Source: a candidate division WS1 bacterium (lineage in GTDB: Bacteria > Armatimonadota > Zipacnadia > Zipacnadales > UBA5352). Taken from it: a stretch of DNA of 64,000 bases. The DNA lies in the NCBI GenBank assembly GCA_012522765.1, contig JAAYJW010000331.1, positions 2,331-66,330 of the forward strand. Reading direction: 5' to 3'. The translations under genes were made by a program, and so were the position numbers. Within the stretch, counting starts at the first letter, position 1, and each line of letters opens with the position of its first letter. Positions 20,329 through 48,271 of this stretch are shown here, in pieces. Under the pieces are notes generated by a model that had not been told where the DNA came from, did no database searches, and worked only from the letters and a program-made list of their open reading frames with translations.

Positions 20329-20355
20329 AGGCGCATCCTCCGGATGCTGCTGGGT

Positions 20356-26169: not shown

Positions 26170-26190
26170 GTCATCTCCCTGTGCGTCAGT

Positions 26191-30114: not shown

Positions 30115-30117
30115 GGC

Positions 30118-30843
30118 TCAGGCCTCCTCCGCCCGCAGGCACAACACGTCCACCAGGTCGGCGACAGAGTCCAGCACGAGGTCGGCGCCAAGCTCCTCGA
30201 ACTGCTCCCGCGTGGTGCCGGCTGTAAGGACGCCCGCTGTCCATGCTCCCGCGGCCCTGCCGGTCTCGATGTCCGTGATATGATCGCCCACCATCAGCGT
30301 CTGCGCGGGCGTGGCCTCGAGCACCTCCAGCGCCAGGTGCAGGTGCTCGGGGTCGGGCTTGACGCGCACCACGTCGTCACGCGTAAGCAACACCTCGTGG
30401 TGCAGCGGGTGGCGGCTCACAACGCTCTCGACGCCGGTGCGGCAGTTACGTGTGATGATGCCCACGCGATGACCGCAGGCGCGAAGCATTTCCAGCGTCT
30501 CCGGCACTCCGGGGAAGGGCGCGGCAGTCGTGGTGGAAAGCAGTTCAACTTCCAGCATCGCCTGCTGCGCCTCTTCGTGGAAACGCTGACGATCGCTCTC
30601 ATCGAGCAGCGCCATCGCGTCCTGCACGATCTCAAGGATGTAGCGCCTCGAATTAAGGTGCTCGATCAGCCGCCACCGCTCGGCGACTTCCAGCACCCGC
30701 TGCCGCATGAGGGCGAAGTCAATGTTGGTCTCCGCGAGGGTGCCGTCGAAGTCGAAGACGACGGCCCGGATCGCGGCCGGGTCGAAGATGAGTTGCTGCT
30801 GCTCGGGTTGAGTGCTCATGTGATGAAGACCGGCGAGGCCCAC
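30118..30843 (-). CDS. HAD-superfamily phosphatase (HAD-IA)
   Basis: Motif I VVFDFDGTL; motifs II-IV present (MVGDHITDIETGRAAG). Likely start at MSTQPE. Confidence 0.85.
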   Translation of the reverse strand: MGLAGLHHMSTQPEQQQLIFDPAAIRAVVFDFDGTLAETNIDFALMRQRVLEVAERWRLIEHLNSRRYILEIVQDAMALLDESDRQRFHEEAQQAMLEVELLSTTTAAPFPGVPETLEMLRACGHRVGIITRNCRTGVESVVSRHPLHHEVLLTRDDVVRVKPDPEHLHLALEVLEATPAQTLMVGDHITDIETGRAAGAWTAGVLTAGTTREQFEELGADLVLDSVADLVDVLCLRAEEA

Positions 30844-32306
30844 GCCATCTCGCCATCGGCCTGAGTGATGCGAAGGTAGTAGTAGTCGCCCGGGCGCGCC
30901 GGCTCAGCGTCGCTGAGGGTGACGCTGGCGCGGCTGTCAGCCGATGACACGGTCGCGATCTCGCGGTTGTTCTTCACGAGTTCGATGGCGCTCAGCGCTG
31001 CGGTGCCGATGATCTCGGCCTGCAACTCGGCGGGGCCGCTGATCTCCTCAGCGGCGATCTCGCCGCCCATCGGCGTGTCGCCGAGACTGAAGCGGACGAT
31101 GATCCGTGCGCCGGTGGTGGCGTAGCAGCGACGGGCACGTAGCGCGTCGAAGATGCCGTCGCGGGTGAGGCTGTCCGCCCAGACGCCGGTGATCCCGGGC
31201 GGGGCGAGGAAGTCGGTCTCTGCAATCACATGCCAGCCGTGTACCAGCGGACGCGAGGGGCGGCCGTCGTGCGACTCCGAGCCACCGGTGAAGCCGAAGC
31301 GCCAGCCGCGCGCGAGGCCGTCCTGCAGATGGTGGCCGCGAGCCTCGCCCGTCTTGAAGTAGCCACCCGAGGGCAGATACTTGATCGGGTAGGGCTCGCC
31401 GGGCTTCTCCGAGCTGCCCCAGATGGAGAACACCTCGCAGCAGCGCTCAAGCTCCGCGTCGCTGTAGTCCCAGTTCATCCACGTGTTGCCACCGCCGCGG
31501 GCGGTGTGATGCGGGAATGAGAGCACATCCGCAGTCGGCATCGCCTCGCGCAGTGCTCGGAAGAGACCCTCGGCGGTATGTGTCGCATATTCGTTTGAAC
31601 GGAAGATCGGCACCTGCTCGATGCCGCGCGCACGGTTGCGGCGGTAGATGATATGCCGGTGGCCGAAGTTGCGCGACATGTCCTGCGAGTTGCCCCACTC
31701 ATAGCCGGGGAAGGTGACGAAGCGGCCGCTCTCGTTCAGCCGCCGATGCACCTCGATCTGCTGCGCCCATTCGTCATCGGTGAGGTTGAGGTCGTGGTCG
31801 GAGACGGTGGCGAAGTGGATTGCCGCCACGTCGCGCGCCCACGCGAGTGCATCCCCGACAGTAGGCGGGCCCATCAGCAGGTCCGCATCGCTGATGAGAG
31901 CCTGTGCGGGCCGCTCGCGGATGTGCGAGTGGACATCGCCCCAGTAGAGCGACAGCGGCCCTGGTTCGACGCTTACCTCCAGCGGATCGGAGCCCGCGTG
32001 AAAGCCGCCGAGGGTGGCCTCGATGTGATAGACGCCCGCCTCAGGCGCCACGATCTCCAGGTGCCCGAGACCTTCGTCAATCTGCACACTATCGAGATCG
32101 CTGGGGCCATCTGCACCGACGAGGCTGAGAGCCGCGGTGCCTGCGCCGTCGGTGGCGGTGGCGCCGATGCCGTTAAGTGCCTGCACGGTGACCCGAACGC
32201 GGTCACCGTACGTGGCACTACTGTCGGTTACGACCCGGAGGCCTGTGACCTCCGGGTCGATGAGCCTCTGAACGACCTCAGGGAGCGGCGGGGGCTCCTG
32301 TGCCAT
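30816..32306 (-). CDS. DUF3604 family protein (paralogue 1), putative PHP-like metal-dependent phosphoesterase
   Basis: Motifs YWGDVHSHI, SGRFVTFPGYEWGN, and C-terminal DYYYLRITQADGEMAWASPVFIT. Start MAQEPP (ATG 32304-32306) with GGAGGTG RBS. Overlaps the UPF0182 gene end. Confidence 0.75.
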   Translation of the reverse strand: MAQEPPPLPEVVQRLIDPEVTGLRVVTDSSATYGDRVRVTVQALNGIGATATDGAGTAALSLVGADGPSDLDSVQIDEGLGHLEIVAPEAGVYHIEATLGGFHAGSDPLEVSVEPGPLSLYWGDVHSHIRERPAQALISDADLLMGPPTVGDALAWARDVAAIHFATVSDHDLNLTDDEWAQQIEVHRRLNESGRFVTFPGYEWGNSQDMSRNFGHRHIIYRRNRARGIEQVPIFRSNEYATHTAEGLFRALREAMPTADVLSFPHHTARGGGNTWMNWDYSDAELERCCEVFSIWGSSEKPGEPYPIKYLPSGGYFKTGEARGHHLQDGLARGWRFGFTGGSESHDGRPSRPLVHGWHVIAETDFLAPPGITGVWADSLTRDGIFDALRARRCYATTGARIIVRFSLGDTPMGGEIAAEEISGPAELQAEIIGTAALSAIELVKNNREIATVSSADSRASVTLSDAEPARPGDYYYLRITQADGEMAWASPVFIT

Positions 32307-35289
32307 TGATGGCACCTCCGGTCTCCTGCTCGATCTGCTGCCCAAGCTGGTCCAGCAACTGCGTCTGCTGCTGGTTGAGCTCGAAGTAGGTGACCACATC
32401 GCCGCGGGCACGGGCCGCCTCGGCGTCGCGATTGAGCGCGAGGATCCGATCGAGCGTCTGGCGGACCGTCTCGAGCACCCCGGACTCGGCCCCCGGTGTT
32501 GCGGCGGTGGGCGGCTCAAACGCGTCATCGGGCAGCTCCACCTCGACTCCGAGGTCGCCGAAGATCTGCGTCAGTGCGCCCTCGATGGTGTCGCTGAAGG
32601 CGATCGAATCGCCGTAGACGAGGATGACCTTGCGCAGCTCGGGAAGACCGGTATCCTCGGCCTCGAGGTAAAGCGGCTCCACGTAGAGCAGCGAGTTCTC
32701 GAGCGGGATCACGAGCAGGTTGCCACGGATCACATTCGAGCCCGCCTGGCTCCAGAGCGTTATCTGCGACGAGATTGTCGGGTCCTGCCCGATACGCGAC
32801 TCGATCATCCACGGGCCGTACACCAGTTGCCCCTTCGGGAAGTGATAGACCATAAGCTCGCCGTAGTTGGGCCCATCGCAGCGGGCGGCCATCCACGCGA
32901 CCATGTTCCGCTCCTCCTGGCCCTGCAACACCAGCGGCATCATGATCAGGAACTCGGGCTCTTCCTCTCCCGGGAGTCGCATGACCACGTAGTAGGCCTC
33001 GACCATCCGGCGGCCGAAGGAGTAGATCTCCGGCGGCATGGCCCAGCGGTCCTCACCCTGATAGAAGACCTCGGGGTCCTTCATGTGGTAGTCGGCGTAG
33101 ACGCCCACCTGAAGGGTGAAGAGAAGCTGCGGGACGCGCAGGTGGCTGCGCAGGTGATCGGACATCTCCTCGCCGCGCTTGAACAAAGTCGGGAAGATCT
33201 TGTCGTAGCACTGCACCAGCGGATCGGTGTCGTCAACGATGTAGTACTCGGGCGTCCCGTTGTAGGCGTCGCAGACAACCTTAACGGAGTTGCGGAAGTA
33301 GTTCCCCAGCGGTCGCAGTCCCTGCGAGTAGGGATACTTACCCGAGATCGTATAGGCGTCGTTGATCCACTTGAGCGAGCCGTCCTCATCAATGACGATG
33401 TAGGGGTCGGGGTCATACATCATGAACGGCGCGATGGCCTGCATCCGCTCGGGAAGAGTCCGGTTGATCTGGATGCGGCTCTCGTGCGTCGTCAGGTTCG
33501 TGAACAGGATGCGCACGTCCGGGAAGAAGCGGGCGAAGAAGGCGAAGCGCCGGAAGTAGGACGAAAGCTGCACGCCCCCGGTGCCGTCGTAGTGGATGTA
33601 GGCGTTGTCGATCTCACCAGTGCCCTCGCCACCGCGGGAGTAGTGAAGCTCCTGCTCCTTGGTGTTGACGATGACGAACTCCTGAGCGGTGATGTCCTCG
33701 GGCGTGCCGCCGTAGCCGCGTCGCGGCTGATTCGGGCCGGTTGCAGGCTGACCGGTACCCGGCCCCTCCGGAGTCTCTGCTCCGGGCTGCGCCTGCGGCT
33801 GCTGTGTCGTCAGAGGCTGCTCCGGCGGGCGCATCCGCTCAATCATCCGAGGATGCGTGGCGGTGCCGTAGTAGATCCCGAGGTTGGGCGTGTTCTCCTG
33901 CTGCGGGAGGCTCGGGATCCCGATATCCTGCGAGACGGTCAGCGGAATGCCATGCACCCAGTAGTTGGGGCGGCCCTCTGCATTAGTCTCATTGACCGGC
34001 GCGAGCGTAATGCCGTAGCCGTGGGTGTACTTCAGGTTCCTGTTGACCCATCGCTCCCGACCGGGAAGCTTATCGGCGTTGAGCTGCCGCGGCGCCAGCA
34101 TGACCTGGCGGATCCGGCCATCTACCATGTAGCGGTCAACATCCACGTCCGGGAAGTTGTAGTAAGCGCGCAGCGCCTGCTCCTGGTTGTAGGTTCGCTG
34201 CAGCGGGCGATGGTCCCACAGGCGAATGTTCTCAATCGTCGCCCAGTTATCGCGGATCGTTTCGGGGGTGATGTCGTTGCTGATCGCAATGCTTCGGTCC
34301 TCCACCTCATGCGTACCGTAGGCGAAGTTGGTTGCTTCGATGTTCCGTGCGATGTAGGGCCGCTCATACTCAAGCTCGTTCGGCACTACCACGAGCTTCT
34401 GCATGGCCAGCGGATAGACTGTGCCGCCGAGCAGCGAGAGCAGGATCAGGGCCGCGACCGCGCCTGCGGGCAGCTTGTAGTTGCGGGTGCGGATCGCCAC
34501 GATGGCGATGATTGCCGCAGCCAGCGACGCCGCCATCAGCAGATACAGCACCGGCAGGCGGGCGTGGATGTCGGTCCACCCCGCGCCGCCGCGGAAGGCG
34601 CCGGAGGCGTTGCCGAAGAGCAGATCATACTGGGCGAGCCGGTAGCTGTAGATCTTCACCAGCAGCGTGGCCGCCAGAAGGCCGAGGGCGTGTGCGCGCG
34701 CTCGCGGAATCGCCTGCACCGTGTTCCCGACGAGGCGGATGGCCTCCTGATACAGATGCACTACTACGCTGAAGACGAAGGTCACTACCAGCGCGTAGTA
34801 GAGCGACTGCCACATGTACTCAATGAAGCGCAAACGGAAGACGTAGAAGCCGGCGTCCTTGCCGAAGACCGGGTCGGCCTGGTTGAACGGGACCCAGTTG
34901 GCATACTGCAGCCACTCGATCCAGTGAGCACTCGCGACCACGCCGGCCATGACCGCGCCGACTGCGGCGAAGAGCAGCAGAGCGCGGTCGGCATACTGCT
35001 CGATCTGCTCGCGCTCCTCCTCCGGGAGCAGCCGCCGGCCGATGAACGTGACATCACCGGGCAGTGGCCTGCGCGCGAAGCGCAGGTTGGCGTAGAAGAA
35101 CGCGAAGAACAGGCCGGCCACCACCACGCCGAGCACTACGCGGTTCCAGAAGATCGTGGTGAATACCGCTTCCTGCCCGAACGAGCCGAACCACAGATAG
35201 TCGGTGTAGAGCGTCAGGCCTTTGGCGATCAGCACCAGGCCGAAGACCACAGCGAACAGATATAGAACCCAACGGTTGGAAGTTGCCAC
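32278..35289 (-). CDS. UPF0182 family membrane protein (1003 aa)
   Basis: N-terminal hallmark LTLYTDYLWFGSFGQ with multiple TM helices, then a large extracytoplasmic domain. Confidence 0.85.
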   Translation of the reverse strand: MATSNRWVLYLFAVVFGLVLIAKGLTLYTDYLWFGSFGQEAVFTTIFWNRVVLGVVVAGLFFAFFYANLRFARRPLPGDVTFIGRRLLPEEEREQIEQYADRALLLFAAVGAVMAGVVASAHWIEWLQYANWVPFNQADPVFGKDAGFYVFRLRFIEYMWQSLYYALVVTFVFSVVVHLYQEAIRLVGNTVQAIPRARAHALGLLAATLLVKIYSYRLAQYDLLFGNASGAFRGGAGWTDIHARLPVLYLLMAASLAAAIIAIVAIRTRNYKLPAGAVAALILLSLLGGTVYPLAMQKLVVVPNELEYERPYIARNIEATNFAYGTHEVEDRSIAISNDITPETIRDNWATIENIRLWDHRPLQRTYNQEQALRAYYNFPDVDVDRYMVDGRIRQVMLAPRQLNADKLPGRERWVNRNLKYTHGYGITLAPVNETNAEGRPNYWVHGIPLTVSQDIGIPSLPQQENTPNLGIYYGTATHPRMIERMRPPEQPLTTQQPQAQPGAETPEGPGTGQPATGPNQPRRGYGGTPEDITAQEFVIVNTKEQELHYSRGGEGTGEIDNAYIHYDGTGGVQLSSYFRRFAFFARFFPDVRILFTNLTTHESRIQINRTLPERMQAIAPFMMYDPDPYIVIDEDGSLKWINDAYTISGKYPYSQGLRPLGNYFRNSVKVVCDAYNGTPEYYIVDDTDPLVQCYDKIFPTLFKRGEEMSDHLRSHLRVPQLLFTLQVGVYADYHMKDPEVFYQGEDRWAMPPEIYSFGRRMVEAYYVVMRLPGEEEPEFLIMMPLVLQGQEERNMVAWMAARCDGPNYGELMVYHFPKGQLVYGPWMIESRIGQDPTISSQITLWSQAGSNVIRGNLLVIPLENSLLYVEPLYLEAEDTGLPELRKVILVYGDSIAFSDTIEGALTQIFGDLGVEVELPDDAFEPPTAATPGAESGVLETVRQTLDRILALNRDAEAARARGDVVTYFELNQQQTQLLDQLGQQIEQETGGAINGTGAPAAP

Positions 35290-35401
35290 CTATGAAGTCC
35301 TCCGATTCATTTACGGCATGTGCGGATAGGACGCATGCGGGTGCCCGAGAGCGTGGTTTCGTGCCGGGGGCATGGTTCATCGTGGCCTGTGCGGATGGCG
35401 G

Positions 35402-35884: not shown

Positions 35885-36092
35885 CGACGTCGAGCCTCCT
35901 CCACCGTGCACCGAACCCACCCTCTGCGGTTGTCGGCAATAACCGCAGTCGCACACAGCAGGGCCTGTCATCGCAAAGTTAAGCCTATCACAGGCTGTTG
36001 CCGGAAGTCAAACTTGAGGGCCGGCCAATCGGGCAGGAGGCATCCCGTAGGCGCTGTTGCGGGCCAGTCACGTTCGGTGGAACGCAGATGGT

Positions 36093-37456: not shown

Positions 37457-37564
37457 TCGTCACTCGATTCGGTGAGATTCGTGATTTCTGGCGTGGAACC
37501 AGTCGCACGCGCGCATTATATCCTATCGGCGCGCAAAGGGGCAACATGTGGCATGGCCCAGAGA

Positions 37565-38542: not shown

Positions 38543-38549
38543 CGCCCCT

Positions 38550-38828
38550 TCACGTGCCCTCTTCGCGAGAGGCCACTCGGATCAGTCTACCGTTACTCTC
38601 GTAGAACCACGCGGAGCCTCCGCCCTCCTCGACCCATTCGAGGAGGCGTTCGAGCAACTCATAGCCCCAGAAGTAGCCGGGAAGCTCCTCGGCATACTCG
38701 ATGACAACCACCGACGGCCGCACCTCTACCCAGCCGCGCAGATCGCGCTCGGGCGTGCGGACGGAGCGGACGATCAGCCGCTTGCCGACCGCCTCTTCGA
38801 CCTGGGCGATGCGGGCGTCGATATCCAC
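38550..38828 (-). CDS. Small hypothetical protein (GTG start)
   Basis: The only non-R-rich, well-composed part of track ORF 38550..39041 begins at GTG 38826-38828, which is preceded by an AGGAAG RBS. Sequence VDIDARIAQVEEAVGKRLIVRSVRTPERDLRGW... with no known motif. Confidence 0.4.
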   Translation of the reverse strand: MDIDARIAQVEEAVGKRLIVRSVRTPERDLRGWVEVRPSVVVIEYAEELPGYFWGYELLERLLEWVEEGGGSAWFYESNGRLIRVASREEGT

Positions 38829-38910
38829 AGGCGACTTCCTCGAACATTCAGGCTCCTGCGGGACGCATCTGCCGTTGAGATGCGTCGGCCGTTGCCGTTT
38901 ACAGAACAAC

Positions 38911-38960
38911 CGCGTCGCTTCGCGCCGCCCCCTGCGAGGGCGCAGGGGCCACACAACGAC
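38911..38960. repeat. REP-like palindromic element (copy 2)
   Basis: cgcgtcgcttcgcgccgccccctgcgagggcgcaggggccacacaacgac, followed by CAACGGC-rich low-complexity sequence up to about 39170. Confidence 0.6.
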
Positions 38961-39171
38961 TCCGGCAACGGCAAACGACAACTGCGACGGCACAGGTCGG
39001 CACGGGGGCCGACCTCTCCAACGGCACACGACGCATGCCAACGGCTACGGCGACGACAACGGCCCACGGGCGAGGGCGCCCGTGGCACATGATGGACGTA
39101 AGTCTGCCGCGAGCCGTCGCCGTCGCTGTCGTTTCTTTCGTTGCTTCCGCTGCCTTCGTTGCTGCCGTTCG

Positions 39172-39540
39172 CTACACCCGCACCGCCTCGGTGACCTGCG
39201 TGTCATTGTGCTCATACGGCGGCGAACAGGCGCAAAGGATCACCAGCGGCTCGATGCCGGTAGCGGTCACGCGGTGTTCGGCGCCGGGCACAATCAGTCG
39301 CGCATCGCCAGGCCCGACCTCCTCGACTTCGCCGCCGATCTCCAGCATCCCCTGCCCCGAGAGCACATAGTAAATCTCCTCCGCCTCCGCGTGCCGGTGG
39401 CGAAGAGTGCTTCTGCCACTCTCAATAACGGCCCGGGCGAGGCTGAGGTTCCGGGATCCCTCCCGCTCAGGCCGAATAAGCTCGAGAATCCGCGAACCAT
39501 CGAGGGTAGTGTACTCTTCCGCGTCGCCCGCCGCAGGCAT
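39172..39540 (-). CDS. Cupin-domain protein
   Basis: Cupin motifs HRHAEAEEIYYVLSG and PGAEHRV. Lies 7 nt downstream of DUF3604 paralogue 2. Confidence 0.8.
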   Translation of the reverse strand: MPAAGDAEEYTTLDGSRILELIRPEREGSRNLSLARAVIESGRSTLRHRHAEAEEIYYVLSGQGMLEIGGEVEEVGPGDARLIVPGAEHRVTATGIEPLVILCACSPPYEHNDTQVTEAVRV

Positions 39541-39546
39541 CGCTCT

Positions 39547-41025
39547 CTACCTCCCGACCCACACCGGCGAGGTCCACGCCATCTGCCCGTTGGCCTGCGT
39601 CACGCGCACGTAGTAGTAGTCGGCGCCCTCGCCCGAGCCCTCGTCTTCAATCTCCAGCGACGCCTCATAGCTCTCAGGCAGCACGAGGCGATCGATCTGC
39701 ACGTTCTCGGTAGTGAACGCGCCGGTGAAGGCCGTCTCAGACTGCGCCGCAAGTTCCCCGAGCGTGCGCTCGATCGTCAGCGATGAAGGCCGCGTCACCC
39801 GCAGCGTCACCTGCGCATCCGCGGGGCCTGCGATCTCGAAGTACATGCGCTTGGTCGGGTCCTCCGCCAGCGCACCCTCGCGCGCGGTGAAGGACTGCCA
39901 GCGGCACGCGCTGTCGCTTCTCTCGAGCACCCGGTCGCGGCGATATTCCTCATAGGGAGCCGCCTGCCACGCGGGCACTGCGTTGACGATGGTAGCGCCA
40001 TCGAGCCGCAGTTCCATCTCCCAGTCGCAGGTGCGCGGCATCGAGAGCGTCGCCCACGGTCCCCAGCCGTAGCGGACATGGCAGCGCGCCCTGCCGGGCC
40101 ATGGATCGAGCGCCGGCTTCTGCTTGCCGAAGGCCCGCGCGATCGGCTCCCCGTTGCGGATAAGCTCGACCATGCTGATCTCATCCCAGCCGATGACGCT
40201 CACGGCGATCTCGCGCACATCGCTCGCCTCAAGCTCGCTGCCCATCGGCTGCCCATTCACGCTGAAGTCGATCTCGATGCGGTCGCCCGAGACGGCGTAG
40301 CAGCGGCGCTTGCGCAGGGCGTCGAAGATCGCCTCGCGCGTGAGTTCCGGCGCTATCACCGCGGCTATGCCCTCGCCCCACGCTCCGGGATAACCGAGGT
40401 GATCGTCGGTCGAGCCGACGCAGCCGAGCCGCATGCCCTGATCGAGCGCCCACTGCCATGTGCTGGAAGTAGCGCGGCCGCCCATCGAGTGGCGGATGTA
40501 GTCGTGCAGGCCGCGGTCCCGCTCGGCGCCTCCGTGCTCGGAGATGATCTCAGCGATCGGCGAGAGGTCGGTATCCACGTGCTCCCACATCTGCCCGCGC
40601 CAGAGGCGGGGGTAGCCAGGGTGGTGGGGAATGAGCAGCGCGCCCATCTTCCGCGCGTAAGCCTTCAGCCCATCGAGCGTGGCGAAGTAGCGCAGTTCGC
40701 CGGAATCGTCGGGGAAGACGATGTGATAGTCGCCCCACGAGATCGAGTGGAACTCCCATCCGGGGAAGGTGACGAACTCGCCGGGACGGTAGTAGCTGCG
40801 CGTGAGGCGCTGCACCTCGGGCCACTGCGCGCGCAGATCGGCGAAGCCATGCACCCACTTCATGTGCGCGTTCTGCGGCATCACGGGCATGTCGGGCCAT
40901 TGCGAATGCCCGGCGTGCGCGAAGAAGTCGAGGTGCTCGCGGGCTATCTCAAACGATCGTGCGAGCGATCCCTTCGCGTAGCCCGCGGCATTGTGATTGT
41001 GCAGGTCGCCCCAGTAGATCGGCAT
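39547..41025 (-). CDS. DUF3604 family protein (paralogue 2)
   Basis: Starts directly at MPIYWGDLHNHN (GGGAGGA RBS). Motifs PGEFVTFPGWEFHS and GADYYYVRVTQANGQMAWTSPVWVGR. Confidence 0.75.
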   Translation of the reverse strand: MPIYWGDLHNHNAAGYAKGSLARSFEIAREHLDFFAHAGHSQWPDMPVMPQNAHMKWVHGFADLRAQWPEVQRLTRSYYRPGEFVTFPGWEFHSISWGDYHIVFPDDSGELRYFATLDGLKAYARKMGALLIPHHPGYPRLWRGQMWEHVDTDLSPIAEIISEHGGAERDRGLHDYIRHSMGGRATSSTWQWALDQGMRLGCVGSTDDHLGYPGAWGEGIAAVIAPELTREAIFDALRKRRCYAVSGDRIEIDFSVNGQPMGSELEASDVREIAVSVIGWDEISMVELIRNGEPIARAFGKQKPALDPWPGRARCHVRYGWGPWATLSMPRTCDWEMELRLDGATIVNAVPAWQAAPYEEYRRDRVLERSDSACRWQSFTAREGALAEDPTKRMYFEIAGPADAQVTLRVTRPSSLTIERTLGELAAQSETAFTGAFTTENVQIDRLVLPESYEASLEIEDEGSGEGADYYYVRVTQANGQMAWTSPVWVGR

Positions 41026-41117
41026 GTCTGGTCCTCCCGATGAATGACCGAAGGGGCCGGACTCGGCCGCTCCCATCGAGCGTCCTCGTGCGGCCCCTCC
41101 TCGTCTTCAGTCTCAGA

Positions 41118-43175
41118 CTACCCCACGTTGAGCTTCGCGATGTAATCCTGAAGCTCGCTCTGCAGATTGTTGCGCTGCGTGGTGAGGTCGTCGATCTCCT
41201 TGCGCACCCGGTCGAACTCGTCCTCCTGCTCCGTGAGCTTCGTCACGTAGCGGGTGTAGAGTTCGCTGTCACGGTCAAGCTGCTCCATGTTCTGCCGGAT
41301 GCGGTCCTGCTCCTCGCCGATCTGCTCCAGGCGTGCCTGCCGTGTCGCAATCTCGCGCTCGATGCCGGCGATCTGCTGCTTCATCTGTATGATTTGCTCC
41401 AGCGCGGCCTTCACGTCGGCCGGAAGCTCGCGCCACTGCAGATAGTAGCCGACCCGATCGATGCTCTCTGAGGTCAGCGCAACGCGCTCGGTGATCGGCT
41501 GGCGCATCTTGACGGTGAGCTTCTCAGTGGCGCCAGCAGGCACCTCGACCTCGATGCGGTAGAGGTCACGGGTGGTCTCGGCCGCCTCCGCCGGCTCAAC
41601 AAGCTCCCAGCCGCCTCGGCGCGGGTGCTCGATCAGCACCGTCCGCGCCTCTTCGGCGTTGTTCTTGATCGTATACTCGATGTCGTTTGTCTGCGTAAGC
41701 TGCGCGATCAGCACGCCGTTGACGATCTTGATCGACTCGCGAGTCTGATCGCCGCCCTTAGCCTCCGGGGCGACCTCAACCGCGGTGTCCATCGCGTAGC
41801 TGATCAGGCGCTTGTCGCCGGGGCCAAGGTCATCCACCAGCGCGTCGCCCGCGTAGGCGCCGCCGTCGAAGACGGTGATCGCCCCACCCATAAGCGCGAG
41901 GCCCGTGGAGTTGGTCAGCCGCAGTCCGTGCATCGGATACTTCGAGTTTGCCTGCGGGCTGTAGATGGAGAGCTTGTCGGTCTCGACCGGCTGGTTGACG
42001 ATCGGGATCATCGCCGAGCCCTGGCGGTTGATCGAGATCGGCTGGTTGATGGCGTAGTGGAACATCTCGCCGACTTCCTCGCCCGCCGCGGCGGCTGCGA
42101 TGCCTGTGCCCGCAAGCGCATCGGCCGCAATGCCGCCGCCGAAGCCGCCTGGTGCGCCGGGTGCGGCCATACCGACCCCGCTGTCCATCATACTCATCGA
42201 AGGCGCGGGAGCGGCCATACGCGCCATCGCACGCTCCTCTTCGGGTTCCTTGGCACCCTCGTCCGCCTCAGCTTCCTCCAGCGCCGCGCCGTACATCCGC
42301 GGACGCGCAGCCACCTGCGTCTGCACCGGGACCTCTGGCCGGTCCACGTAGACCGGCTGGTAGAGGTCCTGCGTGAAGCTCACGGGGCGGCCGGAGACGA
42401 GCGCGAGGTTGACCTGCTCCCAGTCGGTGTCGGTCGTGTTCTCCACGATCGCCCAGCCCTGCAGGAAGCTCTCGCCACGATCCGCGACGAGGCGGTACGT
42501 GGTTTTCCAGACCGGGGTCTCGAGCAGGTAGCCCACGGACACCTGCCGCGCACCCTGGCCGTTGAAATGCAGTTCCACTCCGCGCTTGGAGACGTCGCGG
42601 TTGGCGGCGATCGCGGCGAGCGCCTTGCGCAGGTCGGTGGAGAGTTCGTCGCTGATCAGCCTGGCGTCCCTGATATGCCAGATCGCGACCTGCTGCATCC
42701 CCGCGTCGGTGACGATGTTGACGACCTCGAAGCGAACCACGTTATCCTCGACCGTCTTCTCCTGCCACTCAGTGCCGAGGATCGTGCCGCGAACTTCCTT
42801 GCCATCATTTGTGGTGATGGCGACTTCCGCACCCCGCAGGCGCGAGAGAAGCTCACCGAGGGAAGGCTCATCCGCGATATCCACCGCGAAGGACCCGAGG
42901 GTGCGCTCCAGTGGGTCGCGCGGGGCGTAGGTCACGGGGCCGATTGTGCCGCCGGAAAGGTCCTGCAGCACCATCGACTTGAGGATGTCGTTGATCTGCT
43001 CGGCACGGAATGAAAGCTCGACCGACTGGTCGTCTCTCACCATGCCCTCATGCTGGAAGAACCCCACGCCGCTGGAGTAGAGCACGACGTGGCTGAGCGG
43101 CAGGTCGGCAGCGAATGCACCGCCCGCGGCAGTCGCCATTATGACCACACCTATCAACAGTGGATTGAACCTCAT
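41118..43175 (-). CDS. Secreted DUF4139-like coiled-coil protein (685 aa)
   Basis: Start MRFNPLLIGVVIMATAAGGAFA with a strong AAGGAGG RBS. The 200-aa R-rich extension in the track is rejected. VSVGYLLETPVWKTTYRLV resembles the DUF4139 core, assigned from memory and not searched. C-terminal 120-aa coiled coil. Confidence 0.55.
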   Translation of the reverse strand: MRFNPLLIGVVIMATAAGGAFAADLPLSHVVLYSSGVGFFQHEGMVRDDQSVELSFRAEQINDILKSMVLQDLSGGTIGPVTYAPRDPLERTLGSFAVDIADEPSLGELLSRLRGAEVAITTNDGKEVRGTILGTEWQEKTVEDNVVRFEVVNIVTDAGMQQVAIWHIRDARLISDELSTDLRKALAAIAANRDVSKRGVELHFNGQGARQVSVGYLLETPVWKTTYRLVADRGESFLQGWAIVENTTDTDWEQVNLALVSGRPVSFTQDLYQPVYVDRPEVPVQTQVAARPRMYGAALEEAEADEGAKEPEEERAMARMAAPAPSMSMMDSGVGMAAPGAPGGFGGGIAADALAGTGIAAAAAGEEVGEMFHYAINQPISINRQGSAMIPIVNQPVETDKLSIYSPQANSKYPMHGLRLTNSTGLALMGGAITVFDGGAYAGDALVDDLGPGDKRLISYAMDTAVEVAPEAKGGDQTRESIKIVNGVLIAQLTQTNDIEYTIKNNAEEARTVLIEHPRRGGWELVEPAEAAETTRDLYRIEVEVPAGATEKLTVKMRQPITERVALTSESIDRVGYYLQWRELPADVKAALEQIIQMKQQIAGIEREIATRQARLEQIGEEQDRIRQNMEQLDRDSELYTRYVTKLTEQEDEFDRVRKEIDDLTTQRNNLQSELQDYIAKLNVG

Positions 43176-43246
43176 GTGCAGGACCTCCTTGGTAGTGAAC
43201 GAAACCGGTGAGCCGGAACGTGACAGGCGGCAAGTGACGGCACAAC

Positions 43247-43277
43247 GGCGGCGGGGTACAAGCCCCCGCCCTATAAC
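43247..43277. repeat. REP-like hairpin GGCGGGGTACAAGCCCCCGCCC (module B)
   Basis: Near-identical to 50646-50670. Perfect 8-bp GC stem with TACAAG loop. Confidence 0.55.
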
Positions 43278-43282
43278 ATCTC

Positions 43283-44395
43283 CTACGCCCTCTTCATTGC
43301 GCCGAGGACGTTGGCGGCGCTGGCGAGATAGAGCCTCCCGTCGGCCTCCGTCTCGTTTACCCACTCGGGAGCGTCTTCCTGCTCCAGCAGGTCCGCCGCG
43401 TCCTCCAGCAGCATTACGGCCGTGGCGTGGTCGTAGCGATCCAGCACCATCGCCGCCCAGCCTGTCGCCACCGGCCAGTAGCCGCCGTTTTGATAGGTGC
43501 CGCGCGGGTAGTCGGCGAGCATCTGCTGCCAGTAGCGCGGAGCAGGCAGATGACGTACCGCGCCGCGCAGGAAGCAGCGGTCGTAGTGGTCGAAGAGCCA
43601 CTCCCCCACGCGCACGGTCTGCGTCTTGCTCAGCGCCCGGACCACTCCCGCATACGTGCTGCCCCACAGGTCGATCTGATTGCACTCGACGCTGGCGGCG
43701 TGCATCATCCCGTTGCGCTCGTCGCGGAAGTCGCTCATCCGCTGCGAGGCCTTGTCCGCCATCTCGAACCATGTGTGGGCCGCGTCATGGTCCTCGATCC
43801 GCTGGCACATCTTCGCGAGGATCATGCACGCTTCCCAGTAGAGCAGCGAGGAGTAGAGCACCTCGCCGGTCATGCCTACCGTGTCGGTGAAGCCGTAGCT
43901 TGAGTGCGGGTTGGCAGGATCTATCCAGACGAGGTGGTCGTCGGACAGCGGGAGTGTCTCCATGGCGTCCATGATGGCGTTCTTGTGCCGGTCCAGCAGC
44001 TCAAAGTCACGGGTATGATCGGTGTAGGCGTCGATGAGCTTGACCGCGAACTGCGCGTTGTCGGTGGGCGGCTTGTCGCCGTGGATGGTGTAGCGGGCGC
44101 GGCCGTCGGTGTAGACGCAGTTGGCCATCAGGCCATCCTCGCGCTGCCCAGCCATGAGGAAGTCGATCGCGGCGGCCATCTCTTCGGGCGGGATGAGCCG
44201 CCCCGCGCCCTCGACGGCGTAGCAGAAGTCGCGGAAGTAGATGCGCCCCGGGTACTTCCCCGCGCCATCGGGCTGGAAGATCCAGGTGCCGTCATCGGCC
44301 TTGATGCGGGCGGCGTCGAGACACTTCTTCGTCACTGCCTCGACGCGATCAACTACGCTGCTTTCTATCTCGACGGGTCTGAGGAAATGTTTCAT
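43283..44395 (-). CDS. Putative (alpha/alpha)6-barrel glycoside-hydrolase-like protein
   Basis: Helical repeat composition with Trp/Tyr-rich NGGYWPVATGWAAMVL, typical of six-hairpin glycosidases. Family not assignable by eye. Confidence 0.45.
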   Translation of the reverse strand: MKHFLRPVEIESSVVDRVEAVTKKCLDAARIKADDGTWIFQPDGAGKYPGRIYFRDFCYAVEGAGRLIPPEEMAAAIDFLMAGQREDGLMANCVYTDGRARYTIHGDKPPTDNAQFAVKLIDAYTDHTRDFELLDRHKNAIMDAMETLPLSDDHLVWIDPANPHSSYGFTDTVGMTGEVLYSSLLYWEACMILAKMCQRIEDHDAAHTWFEMADKASQRMSDFRDERNGMMHAASVECNQIDLWGSTYAGVVRALSKTQTVRVGEWLFDHYDRCFLRGAVRHLPAPRYWQQMLADYPRGTYQNGGYWPVATGWAAMVLDRYDHATAVMLLEDAADLLEQEDAPEWVNETEADGRLYLASAANVLGAMKRA

Positions 44396-44495
44396 GGGTG
44401 TAGCGTGAGCCTCCTGCGCGTCAATGCGCCCAACGCCACCGTGCTTGACGGAGCGACGGGCATCGGGGTTCCATGCAAGGAGCGACTACTTCTTC

Positions 44496-45425
44496 TTAAG
44501 CCTGATCCGCCGCCACTGCTCCCACGAGGTCAGCGATGCGCGCGACGTCATGGCGGCGGCAGTAGGCGGCGATGCCGTCAATGACCTGGTGCATGGCGGC
44601 CGGTTCGACGAAGTTCGCGGTGCCCACTGCGACACCGGTCGCGCCGGCGAGGATGAGCTCCAGCGCGTCGCCCGCGTTCATCACGCCGCCCATGCCGATC
44701 AGCGGCAAGTCAACCGCCCGCGCCACCTCGTAGATCATGCGGACGGCGACCGGCCGCACGGCGGGCCCGGAGAGGCCGCCGGTCACGTTACCAAGGTGCG
44801 GGAGGCGGCGCTCGACGTCAATGCTCATGCCGAGCAAAGTGTTGATGAGCGAGAGCGCGTCCGCACCGGCCTGCTCGGCGGCACGAGCGATCACGGTGAT
44901 GTCCGTCACGTTCGGCGAGAGCTTCACGATCACCGGCAGGTCAGTGGCCGCGCATACCGCCTCGGTCAGCCGCCCGGTCATGTCGCAGTCCACGCCAAAG
45001 GTCATCCCCTCTTCCTGCACGTTTGGGCAGGAGATGTTGACCTCCAGCGCGTCCACTCCGTCTATCGACAGCATCTCCGCCAGACGCGCGAACTCCTCCA
45101 CGCTCCGGCCAGAGATGTTGACGATCACCGGCACCCCGAATCGTTGCAGCGCCGGCAGCTTGTCGTCGATGAAGACTTCAGCACCGGGGTTCTGCAGGCC
45201 GATCGCGTTGAGCATCCCGGCGGGCGTCTCACGCACACGCGGCTGTGGGTTGCCCTCGCGCGGCTCAAGCGTCACGGCCTTGGTGACGATCGCGCCAAGC
45301 TGCGAAAGATCGAGGTAGGGCTCGTACTCGACACCGTAGCCGAAGGTGCCTGAGGCGGACATGACGGGATTCTGCAGATGCAATCCGGCTATCTCGACCG
45401 AGAGGTCGGGGCAGGTGACGGTCAT
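44496..45425 (-). CDS. pyrD: Dihydroorotate dehydrogenase catalytic subunit (class 1B)
   Basis: [35 protein letters not shown]. Start MTVTCPDLS overlaps the pyrK stop (ATGA). Confidence 0.9.
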
Positions 45426-46219
45426 CGGCGCTTCATCCTCTCCCAGTCGATCTCCGTGGCATCGAACACCGGCCCATCGGCGCAGACGCGGACGTAGCCG
45501 CCCGCGCTGGCCGGAACCGCGCAACCGAGGCAGGCGCCGACGCCGCAGCCCATCCACTGCTCCATCGAGACGTAGCAGGGGACGCCTGCATCGCGGCAGA
45601 TGCGGGCGACCGCGGCGAGCATGCCGTCGGGGCCGCAGGCGTAGACATGCTGAGGCCGGTCGCGCTCAAGCTCAGGCGCCAGCACATCCGTCACGAGGCC
45701 GGTCTCTCCCGCGCTGCCATCCTCTGTCACCGCGGTGAACTCATCGCAGCGAGCGGCGAACTCCGTCCAGCACACGAGGGCCTCCTGGTTCGCGGCGCCG
45801 AAGATGGAGCGCACGTAGGGCTGGCGCTCCATCAGCCGCAGGCCATCGGCGAAGAAGATCAACGGTGCGACGCCAATGCCGCCCGCGACCAGCACTACGT
45901 CTTCGCCACCCGCGGGTGCCTCCCAGCCATTGCCCAGCGGCCCGAGCAGGTCGTAAGCCACGCCCTCATCGTGGGTTGCGATGATCCCGGTTCCGCGTCC
46001 GACGGTGCGCACGAGTATCTGCACCTCGCCGGTCTCCGGCTGGGCCAGCAGGATGGAGAACGGGCGCCTCAGCAGCGGGTCCGTCCCATCGCCGATGCGC
46101 AGGTGGACGAACTGCCCCGGTTGCGCCGCCTTCGCGACTTCCGGGCAATCCAGCGTAAGCAGATAGTGACCCGAAACTACTTCCTCCCGGTGCCTCAGTA
46201 TTGCGGTCGCTCGTGGCAT
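45422..46219 (-). CDS. pyrK: Dihydroorotate dehydrogenase electron-transfer subunit
   Basis: FAD/NAD-binding ferredoxin-reductase fold (RRPFSI, GGIGVAP). C-terminal 2Fe-2S Cys cluster CGVGACLGC...C. Confidence 0.88.
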
Positions 46220-46378
46220 CTCTCACCTCGGATCGAACCGTTGCCTCCGCTGTCGCAGAAAGCCGGGCGGACTTTGCTTCTATTCGCCTCGCGCGGCCGA
46301 CAGTCCTTGCGCATGGCAGGTCTCCTCTTCCGCGGCGCGAACTGAATCCCGTTCACGAAGAACAAGGAGGCACCCATC

Positions 46379-48271
46379 ATGCGCGCTGTCGCGGCCATCT
46401 CCCCCGCTCCCCTGATTGCCGGCACACTCTCCACGTGGCATTACGAGATCGTCCTGCGCGGCGCGCCGGTGGAGACGGGCGGGTGCGTGAAGATCGCCTA
46501 CGACCTGCGCGGAGAGTCCGGCTACGACGCATTCCCACAGGCCAGCGACGCCACAGCCGCCAACTACGCCACCTGCGAGGGGCCTGAGGGTGTCACGCTG
46601 CGCCTGGAGGGCTATCGCTCGCATCACGCGCAGCATGGGGCAACCACGCTGGAGGAGAAGATCGAGAGCGAGTCCTACTTCTGGCGCGACCTGCTGGGGA
46701 TGTACTCCTCACTGAACCTGCACATCCTGCGGATCGAGGTTGCCGAGGGGCGGCTGGAGGCGGGCGACGTGCTCCGGGTGACGCTGGGCGGCACCTCCGG
46801 CGGTTCGCCGGGGATGCAGGTGCCGGGGCAGGCGAAGAGCGACTGGCGGCACTGGGTCTGTGTGGAGCGCAGCGAAGCAGCACCGCTTGAGCTTCTCGGC
46901 GGCGATGTGCTGGTGGTGGAGCCGAGTGAGCCTGAGCGGCTGGTGGTGTTGGCGCCGTCGGTGGTCGCACCGGATGAGGAGATACCGGTGGCGCACGTGG
47001 TGCTCGACGCCCACGGCAATCCGATCCGGCGCGTGCGGGCGCAGTTCCCTCCCGCACAGAACGATCCCACCGCCGCTGAGTTCGCTGAGGGCTCCTACAT
47101 CATAGACCGCGTGCGGCTTGAGGATGAGCGCGTGGGGCTGGAGGGGCAATCGAACCCGATCGGAATCGTTGAGGAGCCGCAATACCGGCTCTACTGGGGC
47201 GAGATCCACGGTCATACCTGTATCTCCGACGGCGGACAGCGCACTCCCGAGCAGTTCTACCACCACGGCCGCGACACAGCGCTGCTGGACTTCTGCGCCA
47301 TCGCCGACCACGACTTCGGTATCGGCCTGTATGACCCGGAGAAGTACTGGGCGATCATCCTTGAGGCAGCGCGTGACTTCAACGAGTCCGGGCGCTTCGT
47401 TACCCTGCCGGCGTGGGAGATTTCGCACGCCGGTCTGACCGAGGGCGCGACCTACGGCCACAAGAACGTCTACTTCCTCGACGACGATCCCCCGTTCTGG
47501 TCGTCCAGCCCCTACGGCAAGTCGCGGGCGAATCAGACCTACACCCATATCGAGGAGCTTATCGAGCGGCTGGAGGCCTGGGGCGGCGAGTTCATGCTCG
47601 TGGATCACACCTCGCATCAGATGACCGACTGGGCGAGGATCGTCGAGGGCTATACGCGCCTTGTGGAGGTCTACTCGTTCTTCGGCGGCTCGGAGGCGAT
47701 GGACGTTCCCGGGCCAACGGTTGGGCGGCTCAGTGAGGGCAGGACCTCACGCGACGGCCTCGACCTCGGGCACATGCTCGGCTTCACCGCCGGGACCGAC
47801 ACGCACATGGGCGCGCCGGCCGCCTATCAGGAGACGAGCTTCGGACACGGGCGGCTCCCCGGACTCACGGCGGTCTGGGCTACCGAGCTTTCGCGCTACG
47901 CCATCTGGGATGCACTCTGGAACCGCCGCACCTACGCCACGCGAGGCGAGCGCATTCTGCTCGATGCAACGGTGAGCGGAGCGATGATGGGTGACGAGAT
48001 AATGCTGCAGGCCCCGGATGAGCCGCGTCGAATCGATATATCGGTGGCAGGCACCGCGCCGATCGAGACGATCGAGCTTATCCACAACGGCGAGACACTG
48101 CGAAGCTGGACCGGTAAGGGCCGCTGGGACATGGCCCTCGAGTTCGAGCACGAGGGACAGATGGAGGGCCTCGGCTCGACGCCGGGACTGGGGTACTACT
48201 ACACGCGGGTGACCCAGGGAGGCGGCGGCATCGCCTGGTCAAGCCCCACATGGGTCCACTTGCCGCAGTGA
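46379..48271 (+). CDS. DUF3604 family protein (paralogue 3) with 290-aa N-terminal extension
   Basis: YWGEIHGHTCI, SGRFVTLPAWEISH, and C-terminal GYYYTRVTQGGGGIAWSSPTWVHL. AAGGAGG RBS. Confidence 0.75.
   Translation: MRAVAAISPAPLIAGTLSTWHYEIVLRGAPVETGGCVKIAYDLRGESGYDAFPQASDATAANYATCEGPEGVTLRLEGYRSHHAQHGATTLEEKIESESYFWRDLLGMYSSLNLHILRIEVAEGRLEAGDVLRVTLGGTSGGSPGMQVPGQAKSDWRHWVCVERSEAAPLELLGGDVLVVEPSEPERLVVLAPSVVAPDEEIPVAHVVLDAHGNPIRRVRAQFPPAQNDPTAAEFAEGSYIIDRVRLEDERVGLEGQSNPIGIVEEPQYRLYWGEIHGHTCISDGGQRTPEQFYHHGRDTALLDFCAIADHDFGIGLYDPEKYWAIILEAARDFNESGRFVTLPAWEISHAGLTEGATYGHKNVYFLDDDPPFWSSSPYGKSRANQTYTHIEELIERLEAWGGEFMLVDHTSHQMTDWARIVEGYTRLVEVYSFFGGSEAMDVPGPTVGRLSEGRTSRDGLDLGHMLGFTAGTDTHMGAPAAYQETSFGHGRLPGLTAVWATELSRYAIWDALWNRRTYATRGERILLDATVSGAMMGDEIMLQAPDEPRRIDISVAGTAPIETIELIHNGETLRSWTGKGRWDMALEFEHEGQMEGLGSTPGLGYYYTRVTQGGGGIAWSSPTWVHLPQ

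Follow-up and report, generated by a model that had tools for sequence, protein, structure and literature searches.

Three diverged DUF3604 paralogues of a 'Ca. Zipacnadia' genome are probably independent PHP-superfamily metal hydrolases in an inherited gene order

The window, which is the whole stretch of 64,000 nt analyzed here, comes from an Armatimonadota MAG ('Ca. Zipacnadia'/WS1) and encodes three open reading frames, A, B, and C (Table 1). All three products exceeded the gathering threshold of 20.4 bits in an HMM search with the Pfam model PF12228 (DUF3604), and the curated cut-off of 80 bits of the NCBIfam model NF038032 (CehA/McbA metallohydrolase) was reached by C only, with B just under it. 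A fourth DUF3604 copy was not found in the window by tblastn. A and C could be aligned over 410 aa (29.3% identity, E 8e-40), B and C over 341 aa (29.3%, E 7e-26), and A and B over 275 aa (29.8%, E 8e-23), a mutual similarity that, judged from these alignments, is far above chance level. The motifs YWGD.H.H, GRFVT.P..E, and YYY.R.TQ..G..AW.SP occur in all three proteins, which share a common plan of a PHP catalytic domain followed by a beta-sandwich ending with the last of these motifs. B has an insert of about 150 additional, beta-rich residues (aa ~300-455) ahead of the C-terminal motif.

Table 1. Positions of the three DUF3604 genes, their domains, and their neighbors in the window (amino acid ranges in parentheses)
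Feature	Position	Strand	Evidence
Paralogue A, 496 aa	30816-32306	-	PF12228 85.8 bits, NF038032 70.7 bits, homologue lengths
A, N-terminal Ig-like domain (aa 1-118)	31953-32306	-	weak filamin Ig match
A, PHP catalytic domain (aa ~119-401)	31104-31952	-	
A, C-terminal beta-sandwich with DYYYLRITQ..AWASP (aa ~402-496)	30819-31103	-	
Paralogue B, 492 aa, without N-terminal extension	39547-41025	-	PF12228 44.9 bits, NF038032 79.8 bits
B, PHP domain (aa 1-~249)	40279-41025	-	
B, beta-sandwich regions including the insert, ending DYYYVRVTQ..AWTSP (aa ~250-492)	39550-40278	-	
Paralogue C, 630 aa	46379-48271	+	PF12228 44.6 bits, NF038032 85.0 bits
C, N-terminal beta-rich region (aa 1-267)	46379-47179	+	
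C, PHP domain (aa ~268-525)	47180-47953	+	
C, C-terminal beta-sandwich with GYYYTRVTQ..AWSSP (aa ~526-630)	47954-48268	+	
Calcineurin-like Metallophos, downstream of A	28225-29070	-	Pfam
AIRS/PurM-superfamily protein, downstream of A	29095-30114	-	Pfam
HAD-IA hydrolase, downstream of A	30118-30843	-	Pfam
UPF0182 membrane protein, directly upstream of A	32278-35289	-	PF03699 818 bits
Small cupin, downstream of B	39172-39540	-	Cupin_2 60.1 bits
DUF4139-like/MuiA-like protein, upstream of B	41118-43280	-	DUF4139 28.6-29.4 bits, sub-threshold
M50 (site-2 protease type) and CBS protein, downstream of C	48299-49423	+	Peptidase_M50 76 bits, CBS 65.6 bits

A sequence-only reading of the same DNA had already described three diverged DUF3604 paralogues with these core motifs and had named the PF12228 profile as a check. 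The frames proved to be real, all three passed the profile, and their mutual identity is 29-30%. The start codons chosen by this reading were also right. Homologues of A with 496-497 aa span A in full, which fixes its start, and the homologues of B begin at MPIYWGD, that is, at position 41025, which confirms the start of B. The N-terminal extensions had been recognized correctly in content but listed in the wrong order, A having about 118 aa, B none, and C about 267 aa. No signal peptide had been noticed, and a simple hydropathy check, the only one applied, likewise revealed no hydrophobic or Tat-like N-terminus in A, B, or C.

Relatives of A elsewhere are 32-45% identical to it and are nearer to A than C is; those of C are 30-43% identical to it and are nearer to C than A is; and B shares 45-51% identity with proteins from Planctomycetota, Acidobacteriota, and Bacteroidota. 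Since the mutual identity within the window is low and each protein has closer relatives elsewhere, the divergence of A, B, and C, as read from these comparisons, is ancient. The DUF3604 or CehA/McbA-like PHP family is very large and poorly characterized: a C-type profile matched 19,762 clusters at 50% identity. Relatives of A, B, and C in the public databases are annotated as "DUF3604 domain-containing protein," the closest being unnamed MAG proteins, and the NCBI entry identical to C already carries the name "CehA/McbA family metallohydrolase." A literature search found no paper discussing the function of DUF3604 or PF12228, so that the earlier description of the family as functionally uncharacterized essentially holds.

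B and C, according to their structure models, and probably also A have the distorted (beta/alpha)7-barrel fold of PHP (polymerase and histidinol phosphatase) enzymes. The predicted model of C (pLDDT 91.0) matched 3E38 in Foldseek with an E value of 1.2e-10 and the model of B matched 2ANU with 7.7e-7, a structure comparison that the earlier reading had proposed as a check. Structures of the 2ANU/3E38 type, which are structural-genomics entries with predicted functions, were the top matches by a clear margin, and RNase AM, histidinol phosphatases, and the PHP domains of PolX/PolC followed. The profile of the C/A subfamily aligned with the sequence of 3E38 through all ligand motifs (E 8.3e-5). 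The PHP ligand motifs HxH, His, Glu, His, His, and Asp-x-His are present, with variants in A and B. Alignment thus bore out the conserved His, Asp, and Glu ligands of the earlier reading. In C, residues H277, H279, D310, H311, E347, H350, H361, H410, D474, and H476 are 100% conserved. The same is true of the candidate ligands H126, H128, D170, H171, E203, H216, H266/H267, E344, and H346 of A, as counted among 39 subfamily members. A carries Glu-x-His at the position of Asp-x-His, which is the usual form in PHP enzymes. Conservation of the candidate ligands lies at 98-100% within every subfamily, with the exception of the fourth canonical His of B, H101, which just 24% of the B subfamily share; the invariant residues H93, D99, H164, and H179 may form a rebuilt metal site there. 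Invariance of ligand residues across hundreds of sequences per subfamily points to a working metal site, and A, B, and C are, on this sequence evidence, probably active metal-dependent hydrolases.

Pfam confirmed the neighboring genes UPF0182, HAD, AIRS/PurM-like, Metallophos, cupin, M50-CBS, and the EF-hand gene beside C, but not the DUF4139-like protein, which stayed below the cut-off of 31.8 bits. The start of this latter gene is uncertain because its long frame runs into the next gene (43283-44395); a 675-aa counterpart exists in the related locus L003. The HAD, AIRS, and Metallophos proteins matched no specific equivalog in NCBIfam. Spacing of the genes is tight: A overlaps both flanking genes, with the end of the UPF0182 gene reaching 29 bp into its start, the cupin gene begins 6 bp past the stop codon of B, and the M50-CBS gene 27 bp downstream of C. 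This argues for co-transcription with the neighbors in this genome, and some functional link with them may exist.

Comparison with other loci revealed how these neighborhoods are maintained. Within the class 'Ca. Zipacnadia', the block from M50-CBS to a Gfo/Idh/MocA gene is collinear in more than 10 species, the cupin gene follows B in every locus, and the HAD-AIRS-Metallophos order is kept with or without A. With pyrK/pyrD, NifU, a PPIase, a bifunctional-nuclease-domain gene, and DUF58 as further members, the collinear block has the appearance of housekeeping synteny. Two loci, L013 and L016, have no A between UPF0182 and HAD, and two others, L022 and L023, have no C between M50-CBS and pyrK; the flanking genes stayed in place, and no remnant of A or C was found in the available sequence of those loci. 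In the close relatives L003 and L005, other genes occupy the place of the EF-hand gene beside C. Outside the class, no cupin gene follows B, and the flanks usable for a survey, of 32 B-type and about 54 C/A-type loci, contained no homologue of UPF0182, HAD, AIRS, Metallophos, cupin, M50-CBS, or EF-hand. The co-occurrence of neighbors across lineages that would mark a functional operon was not seen. The closeness of A, B, and C within 18 kb is gene order inherited within the class and probably not a functional unit.

These data bear on the proposal of the sequence-only reading that a modular DUF3604 unit was recruited into three operon pathways. On this view, A would work together with UPF0182, HAD, AIRS-like, and Metallophos proteins, B with the DUF4139-like protein and the cupin, and the partners of C would be the M50-CBS protease and an EF-hand protein. 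The three sets of neighbors do differ, the gene spacing suggests co-transcription, the arrangements A-HAD-AIRS-Metallophos, B-cupin, and C-M50-CBS are found again in numerous Zipacnadia MAGs with protein identities as low as 56-67%, and phospho-transfer and phosphoesterase families are abundant in the operon of A. Collinearity, the loci that have lost A or C with all else retained, the replaced EF-hand gene, the mostly housekeeping character of the partners, and their absence around the loci outside the class leave the three-pathway interpretation unsupported, and we regard it as quite unlikely. A role as specific phosphoesterases, either mono- or diesterases, for instance of A in the turnover of phosphate or nucleotides alongside the HAD and Metallophos phosphatases, appears possible rather than probable. 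Most characterized PHP enzymes are phosphoesterases, the nearest solved structures, 2ANU and 3E38, are annotated as such, and the more remote structural matches named above point the same way. Moreover, 3E38 is structurally related to the trinuclear-zinc enzymes Sb-PDE and No-PDE (PMC11656708). However, the functions of 2ANU and 3E38 are predictions, the only relatives named by the NCBIfam model hydrolyze carbamate esters, the neighbors of A are no obligate partners, and the neighborhoods elsewhere repeatedly contain genes for sugar dehydrogenases, sulfatases, and transporters instead of phosphate-regulon genes. The earlier suggestion of PHP-type metal phosphoesterases was right for fold and ligands, while phosphoesters are one option only since the characterized relatives are split between carbamate esters and phosphodiesters.

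Alternatively, one or more copies may not be hydrolases but a dead scaffold or enzymes with other chemistry, PsfC-like or nuclease-like as EndoQ. The non-canonical ligands of B with its poorly conserved H101 and extra invariant His would fit this, and the large beta-sandwich additions could bind polymers. The invariance of the candidate ligands and the clear margin of the 2ANU/3E38 type make it very improbable, as does the Tat signal of about half of the B-type orthologues, a feature in keeping with folded metalloenzymes for small molecules of the periplasm and not with DNA nucleases. It is likely, instead, that A, B, and C are anciently diverged and probably active PHP-superfamily metal hydrolases of the DUF3604/CehA-McbA branch, independent enzymes in inherited synteny. 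By analogy with characterized PHP enzymes, two or three divalent metals would be bound by the conserved HxH, His, Glu, His, His, and Asp/Glu-x-His residues. The nucleophile would be a hydroxide bridging the metals, directed at an ester-type center such as a phosphate, a carbamate, or possibly a sulfate, and a further metal would stabilize the leaving group. A, B, and C would be cytoplasmic, each with its own small-molecule substrate, and none of them would be tied to the neighboring genes.

The neighborhood survey also yielded a lead that can be tested: across phyla, B-type genes lie next to Gfo/Idh/MocA, sulfatase, and sugar uptake or kinase genes. A Gfo/Idh/MocA gene was present within 500 bp of the B orthologue in 9 of the 32 loci, from 5 phyla, and its density near B orthologues was 2.96 per 10 kb compared to 0 in the ring 6-10 kb away. 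Sulfatases and proteins for sugar transport or phosphorylation are often encoded at these Gfo-adjacent loci as well. A Nitratireductor operon has the order regulator, Gfo, DUF3604, ABC transporter, PfkB kinase, sulfatase, and one from Victivallales combines DUF3604 with AP_endonuc_2, two Gfo genes, and an enolase-superfamily gene. In the window, Gfo genes are common (three in 64 kb) and none is adjacent to B. At least the B type might act on a carbohydrate-derived ester in pathways begun by a Gfo/Idh/MocA dehydrogenase, which we consider tentative and rather doubtful. That it is the hydrolytic partner of Gfo/Idh/MocA in an undescribed oxidative breakdown of sugar esters, possibly of sulfated or phosphorylated sugars, is a more specific and still less probable assumption. 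If true, the PHP fold would gain a new class of substrates, and A, B, and C would represent a single type of catabolic enzyme with three specificities, in an anaerobe that degrades polysaccharides. We know of no natural substrate of the DUF3604/CehA-McbA-like family, the characterized members being xenobiotic hydrolases only. One B-type/Gfo locus belongs to a cultured strain, Nitratireductor rhodophyticola L1-7-SE, and could therefore be used to seek such a substrate.

The finding is largely ordinary. The window adds three well-conserved, probably active members to a known but uncharacterized family, and a function read from the neighbors would mislead in this case. Compared to the Pfam DUF3604 model with its 591 positions, A, B, and C are divergent, shorter, and without a signal, and only partial stretches matched best, positions 128-240 for A and 379-416 for B and C. 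The alignment with the CehA/McbA model NF038032 was near end-to-end, covering model positions 3-314 of 315 for both A and C and 5-272 for B. CehA and McbA hydrolyze carbamate esters, McbA requires the His residues of its own PHP-like domain, and the Pseudomonas McbA is periplasmic, while the signal peptide of CehA is predicted only (PMC8292978). A, B, and C differ from these exported or signal-bearing proteins by the lack of a signal. An assignment as orthologues of the CehA/McbA carbaryl hydrolases found no support, given this lack of a signal-like N-terminus, plasmid-collection matches to C that contained no carbaryl hydrolase, and closest database relatives that are unnamed MAG proteins. 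Sb-PDE and No-PDE, which hydrolyze phosphodiesters at a trinuclear zinc site, are xenobiotic diesterases of Sphingomonadaceae with 3E38 as their sole structural relative (PMC11656708). The latter, BVU_3505, is a two-domain PHP-like protein of 343 aa with about 16-17% identity, without counterparts of the N-terminal domains found in A and C or of the insert of B. 2ANU, or TM0559, is a predicted PHP metal-dependent phosphoesterase with a single domain of 224 aa and 16% identity. The canonical PHP enzymes, HisK/HPP, YcdX, the PHP exonuclease of PolX/PolC, and RNase AM, are far more distant and act on other substrates in other domain contexts.

Three DUF3604 genes, designated A, B, and C, were confirmed in the window by open reading frames (ORFs), Pfam scores, and pairwise homology, and all three contain the core motifs that the sequence-only reading had quoted. 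The Pfam scores (PF12228) of 85.8, 44.9, and 44.6 bits for A, B, and C were all above the gathering score of 20.4, and the NCBIfam model of the CehA/McbA metallohydrolase domain scored 70.7, 79.8, and 85.0 bits at a cut-off of 80. Longer ORFs from a mechanical listing, reaching to 32528 for A and to 41076 for B, are not real genes. The start of A was placed at 32306 because the A homologues have 496 to 497 aa and cover A fully, and that of B at 41025 because MPIYWGD is the N-terminus of the closest B homologues. In public databases, all three already bear the annotation DUF3604 or CehA/McbA family; the NCBI protein identical to C, for instance, is named [quoted passage not shown] A fourth copy was not found by tblastn within the 64-kb window.

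The pairs A-C, A-B, and B-C were 29.3% (E 8e-40), 29.8% (E 8e-23), and 29.3% (E 7e-26) identical, respectively. A recent tandem duplication was rejected because the copies share only 29 to 30% identity, while B matches proteins from Planctomycetota, Acidobacteriota, Bacteroidota, and others at 45 to 51% identity. Judged from these identities, the three copies diverged anciently.

Positions of the DUF3604 genes and of other features in the window
Feature	Position	Strand	Length (aa)	Remark
A, DUF3604	30816-32306	-	496	
B, DUF3604	39547-41025	-	492	
C, DUF3604	46379-48271	+	630	
Heparinase II/III-like protein with DUF4962	5424-7952	-		polysaccharide-related
Oligogalacturonate-lyase-like protein	12505-13716	-		polysaccharide-related
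CBM9 + CBM4_9 + GH123-like protein	59293-62802	+	1169	polysaccharide-related
Gfo/Idh/MocA oxidoreductase gene	25149-26252	-		
Gfo/Idh/MocA oxidoreductase gene	50788-51858	+		
Gfo/Idh/MocA oxidoreductase gene	~58200-59001	+		
Xylose-isomerase-like TIM-barrel gene (AP_endonuc_2)	51961-52767	+		
EF-hand protein	49503-50240	+	245	multi-EF-hand
DUF4139-like ORF	41118-43772	-	884	
Hypothetical protein	43283-44395	-	370	
Hypothetical ORF	38550-39041		163	
Large TPR and DUF4175-like ORFs	14672-20355	-		GC 69-71%, strongly negative GC skew
Long ORFs opposite to the TPR/DUF4175-like region	14729-17266	+		high third-position GC

The assumed relationship to the superfamily named after polymerase and histidinol phosphatase (PHP) was substantiated by structure prediction. 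AlphaFold2 models, built from 47-sequence alignments, reached a pLDDT of 93.3 and a pTM of 0.92 for B and 91.0 and 0.91 for C, and Foldseek matched the B model to 2ANU (E 7.7e-7) and the C model to 3E38 (E 1.2e-10). The structural matches, with their scores in parentheses, were 2ANU (TM0559, a predicted PHP phosphoesterase; 21.0), 3E38 (BVU_3505, a two-domain PHP-like protein; 20.4), 7RTY (PsfC; 16.3), 5ZB8 (EndoQ; 14.3), 3O0F (a putative PHP phosphoesterase; 11.7), 9ETK (RNase AM; 10.1), and various histidinol phosphatases, YcdX, and PolX/PolC PHP domains (8-10). The protein 3E38 was also reached by sequence alone with the profile of the C/A-type subfamily (E 8.3e-5), in an alignment that spans HxH, (E)H, E, GH, H, and DxH, and a single-sequence search of the PDB sequences retrieved no catalytic-domain relatives of A and C.

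Alignments of the A, B, and C types revealed the conserved residues expected for a metal site, since the candidate ligands are essentially invariant inside each subfamily. These are H126, H128, D170, H171, E203, H216, H266/H267, E344, and H346 in A; H9, H11, H40, E91, H93, D99, H134/H135, E163, H164, H179, D207, and H209 in B; and H277, H279, D310, H311, E347, H350, H361, H410, D474, and H476 in C. Compared to the canonical PHP pattern, the last motif of A is Glu-x-His, whereas in B the fourth canonical histidine (H101) is kept in only 24% of the subfamily and there are additional invariant His and Asp residues. By analogy with histidinol-phosphate phosphatase, these motifs would hold the metals termed alpha, beta, and gamma in PHP enzymes. 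A, B, and C are DUF3604 members with a PHP fold and conserved ligand motifs. Outside of this shared core, the N-terminus of A forms a domain of about 118 aa that weakly matched filamin-type Ig in the single-sequence PDB search, and that of C is a beta-rich stretch of about 267 aa, the first 265 aa of which had no Pfam match even at E values up to 1. B has no N-terminal extension, but its catalytic domain is separated from the common C-terminal motif by an additional beta-rich insert of about 150 aa, likewise without a Pfam match up to E 1.

Relatives came from Armatimonadota MAGs, many labelled "Candidatus Zipacnadia," a class of anaerobic sediment bacteria (PMC10290634). When the window proteins were mapped onto 60 loci to compare the gene order, the genes formed a block that was collinear in more than 10 Zipacnadia species, down to 56-67% protein identity. 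On one side, C is followed by the M50-CBS gene; divergently from C, the block continues with pyrK, pyrD, the gene for the 370-aa hypothetical protein, the DUF4139-like gene, B, and the cupin gene, then a small hypothetical gene, PPIase, NifU, DUF58, a bifunctional-nuclease-domain gene, and UPF0182, and finally A, HAD, AIRS-like, Metallophos, and Gfo/Idh/MocA. Most of these are housekeeping genes, and the block varies in its DUF3604 genes. In locus L013 (UBA5352), UPF0182 is directly followed by HAD with a gap of 223 bp (18416-18639), and in L016 with a gap of 95 bp (13818-13913); M50-CBS abuts pyrK in L022 (4716-4896) and L023 (2642-2989). A lenient tblastn found no A-type sequence in the whole of L013 or L016 and no C-type sequence in L022 or L023, all of them loci without N runs. 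These A-less and C-less sites, in two species each, are clean differences: the intergenic gaps are short and contain no remnant. The three-copy cluster also occurs on contigs that carry the proteins P0012/P0167/P0126, and P0009 with L011. It is an inherited, lineage-specific syntenic feature in which A and C are present in some species and absent from others.

A prophage setting of an A-like gene in L001 (GCA_900198705.1 FZPS01000148.1) was rejected since its phage-like neighbors are a concatenation artefact: the "2.4 Mb contig" consists of short pieces chained by 100-N runs, and positions 9947-11839 contain a truncated A-like gene plus a HAD piece with 92.8% DNA identity to positions 29814-31706 of the window.

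Several other features of the window deserve a remark. The position of the EF-hand gene, the product of which had sub-threshold NCBIfam matches to XopAW, lanmodulin, and others, is not conserved in related MAGs, and other genes replace it downstream of M50-CBS in L003 and L005, two loci that also contain counterparts of the CBM9 + CBM4_9 + GH123-like protein near C. The DUF4139-like ORF resembles DUF4139/MuiA at sub-threshold scores and has a coiled coil at its end; because it overlaps the next gene by about 490 bp, it probably starts near 43280. The 370-aa protein and the 163-aa ORF matched no family, although both are conserved in Zipacnadia. Gene calls in the TPR/DUF4175-like region are ambiguous because the opposite strand also carries long ORFs, with high GC at third positions. 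No RNA elements were found by Rfam in the whole window.

B belongs to a broad subfamily with 988 matches at E 1e-5 or better, including, outside of Zipacnadia, proteins of Alphaproteobacteria, Latescibacterota, Gemmatimonadota, and archaea with 31-44% identity to B. Among the 118 of 120 listed B-subfamily proteins (P0161-P0280) with a locatable N-terminal motif, simple inspection assigned an RRxFLK-type twin-arginine signal to 55 and Sec or lipoprotein-like leaders to several, and 41 had no N-terminal extension. B of the window is a cytoplasmic form, and these mixed leaders indicate that the same enzyme type is used inside and outside of the cytoplasm. The C-type architecture is very common, judged from 19,762 clusters (50% identity) matching its profile at E 1e-3 or better, 5,232 at E 1e-30 or better, and more than 150 full-length cluster matches better than E 1e-147.

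Neither the cupin, the DUF4139-like gene, nor any other window neighbor was present at any of the 32 non-Zipacnadia B loci. Clustering of the neighboring ORFs of these loci revealed a Gfo/Idh/MocA oxidoreductase gene within 6 kb of the B-type gene in 16 loci and at less than 500 bp in 9 loci from five phyla (Alphaproteobacteria, Planctomycetota, Acidobacteriota, Victivallales, and Latescibacterota). Counting loci one by one irrespective of kinship, and the two Hoeflea loci separately, the density of these genes was 2.96 per 10 kb below 500 bp, 0.3-0.4 at 0.5-6 kb, and 0 at 6-10 kb. Examples among the B-type loci L008-L058 are L055 (8643-18110), L042 (4796-11479), and L030 (9950-13734). A blast cluster including one Pfam-confirmed sulfatase occurred in 7 B-type loci, and PfkB kinase, ABC transporter, and AP_endonuc_2 genes were other recurrent neighbors. 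In Nitratireductor rhodophyticola, the operon comprises a GntR/LacI-type regulator, Gfo/Idh/MocA, DUF3604, ABC transporter, PfkB kinase, and sulfatase, and a Victivallales locus comprises CN-hydrolase, AP_endonuc_2, Gfo, an enolase-superfamily gene, Gfo, and DUF3604.

In the 75 metagenome loci sampled for the C/A-type clade (L066-L140, 27-41% identity), none of the window neighbors recurred. The commonest neighbors across distinct contigs were sulfatases (11 genes in 7 loci) and Gfo/Idh/MocA (6 loci); a cluster of the Na+/H+ antiporter family in 8 loci came from apparently closely related contigs of one lineage. In several contigs, sulfatases (PF00884, with the Pfam match starting at residue 2-13) are located directly downstream of the DUF3604 gene, as in L092 (8843-10261) and L122 (9600-11003). 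DUF3604 genes on plasmids follow ABC transporter genes or are located among genes for amidohydrolases, sugar-phosphate isomerase/epimerase, and Gfo/Idh/MocA.

These data contradict the proposal that each copy works with its window neighbors in a pathway of its own. Tight spacing in this genome supports such partnerships, since A overlaps both neighbors and only 6 bp separate B from the cupin gene and 27 bp C from M50, but A and C are absent from otherwise intact blocks and no neighbor is shared outside of the class. The HAD, AIRS-like, Metallophos, cupin, and M50-CBS neighbors received no specific name from NCBIfam, and therefore no pathway can be read from them. Sugar dehydrogenases and sulfatases, together with sugar transporters and kinases, are recurrent neighbors, which hints at carbohydrate-derived esters as substrates, at least of the B type, although this assignment is doubtful. 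B of the window is not adjacent to a Gfo gene, and the lead calls for a proper background because three Gfo genes occur in these 64 kb. Together with the AP_endonuc_2 gene, this is a high local density. A PHP-fold enzyme with a new role as a Gfo/Idh/MocA-coupled sugar-ester hydrolase is rather improbable. No relevant literature tying PHP proteins to sulfatases or Gfo/Idh/MocA was found.

With respect to the chemistry, each of the three proteins would bind a two- or three-metal center, and a metal-activated hydroxide would hydrolyze an ester-type bond, as in characterized PHP enzymes. A non-hydrolytic or inactive role may be considered for B, the site of which is altered and which resembles PsfC and EndoQ, but is unlikely given the invariant candidate ligands. 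A strictly phosphoesterase role is plausible for the putative enzymes A, B, and C. DUF3604 is a known, large, and uncharacterized family, and searches for DUF3604, PF12228, and IPR022028 found no functional literature; a plasmid search with C retrieved neither CehA nor McbA, and the three proteins were likened to these enzymes through the NCBIfam domain model. The PHP-like domain of McbA contains His residues that are essential (PMC8292978), and Sb-PDE and No-PDE contain trinuclear Zn, with 3E38 as their sole structural relative (PMC11656708). Because CehA/McbA and Sb-PDE/No-PDE, the characterized relatives nearest to this branch, hydrolyze carbamate esters or phosphodiesters, "metallohydrolase" is a safer designation for A, B, and C than "phosphoesterase."
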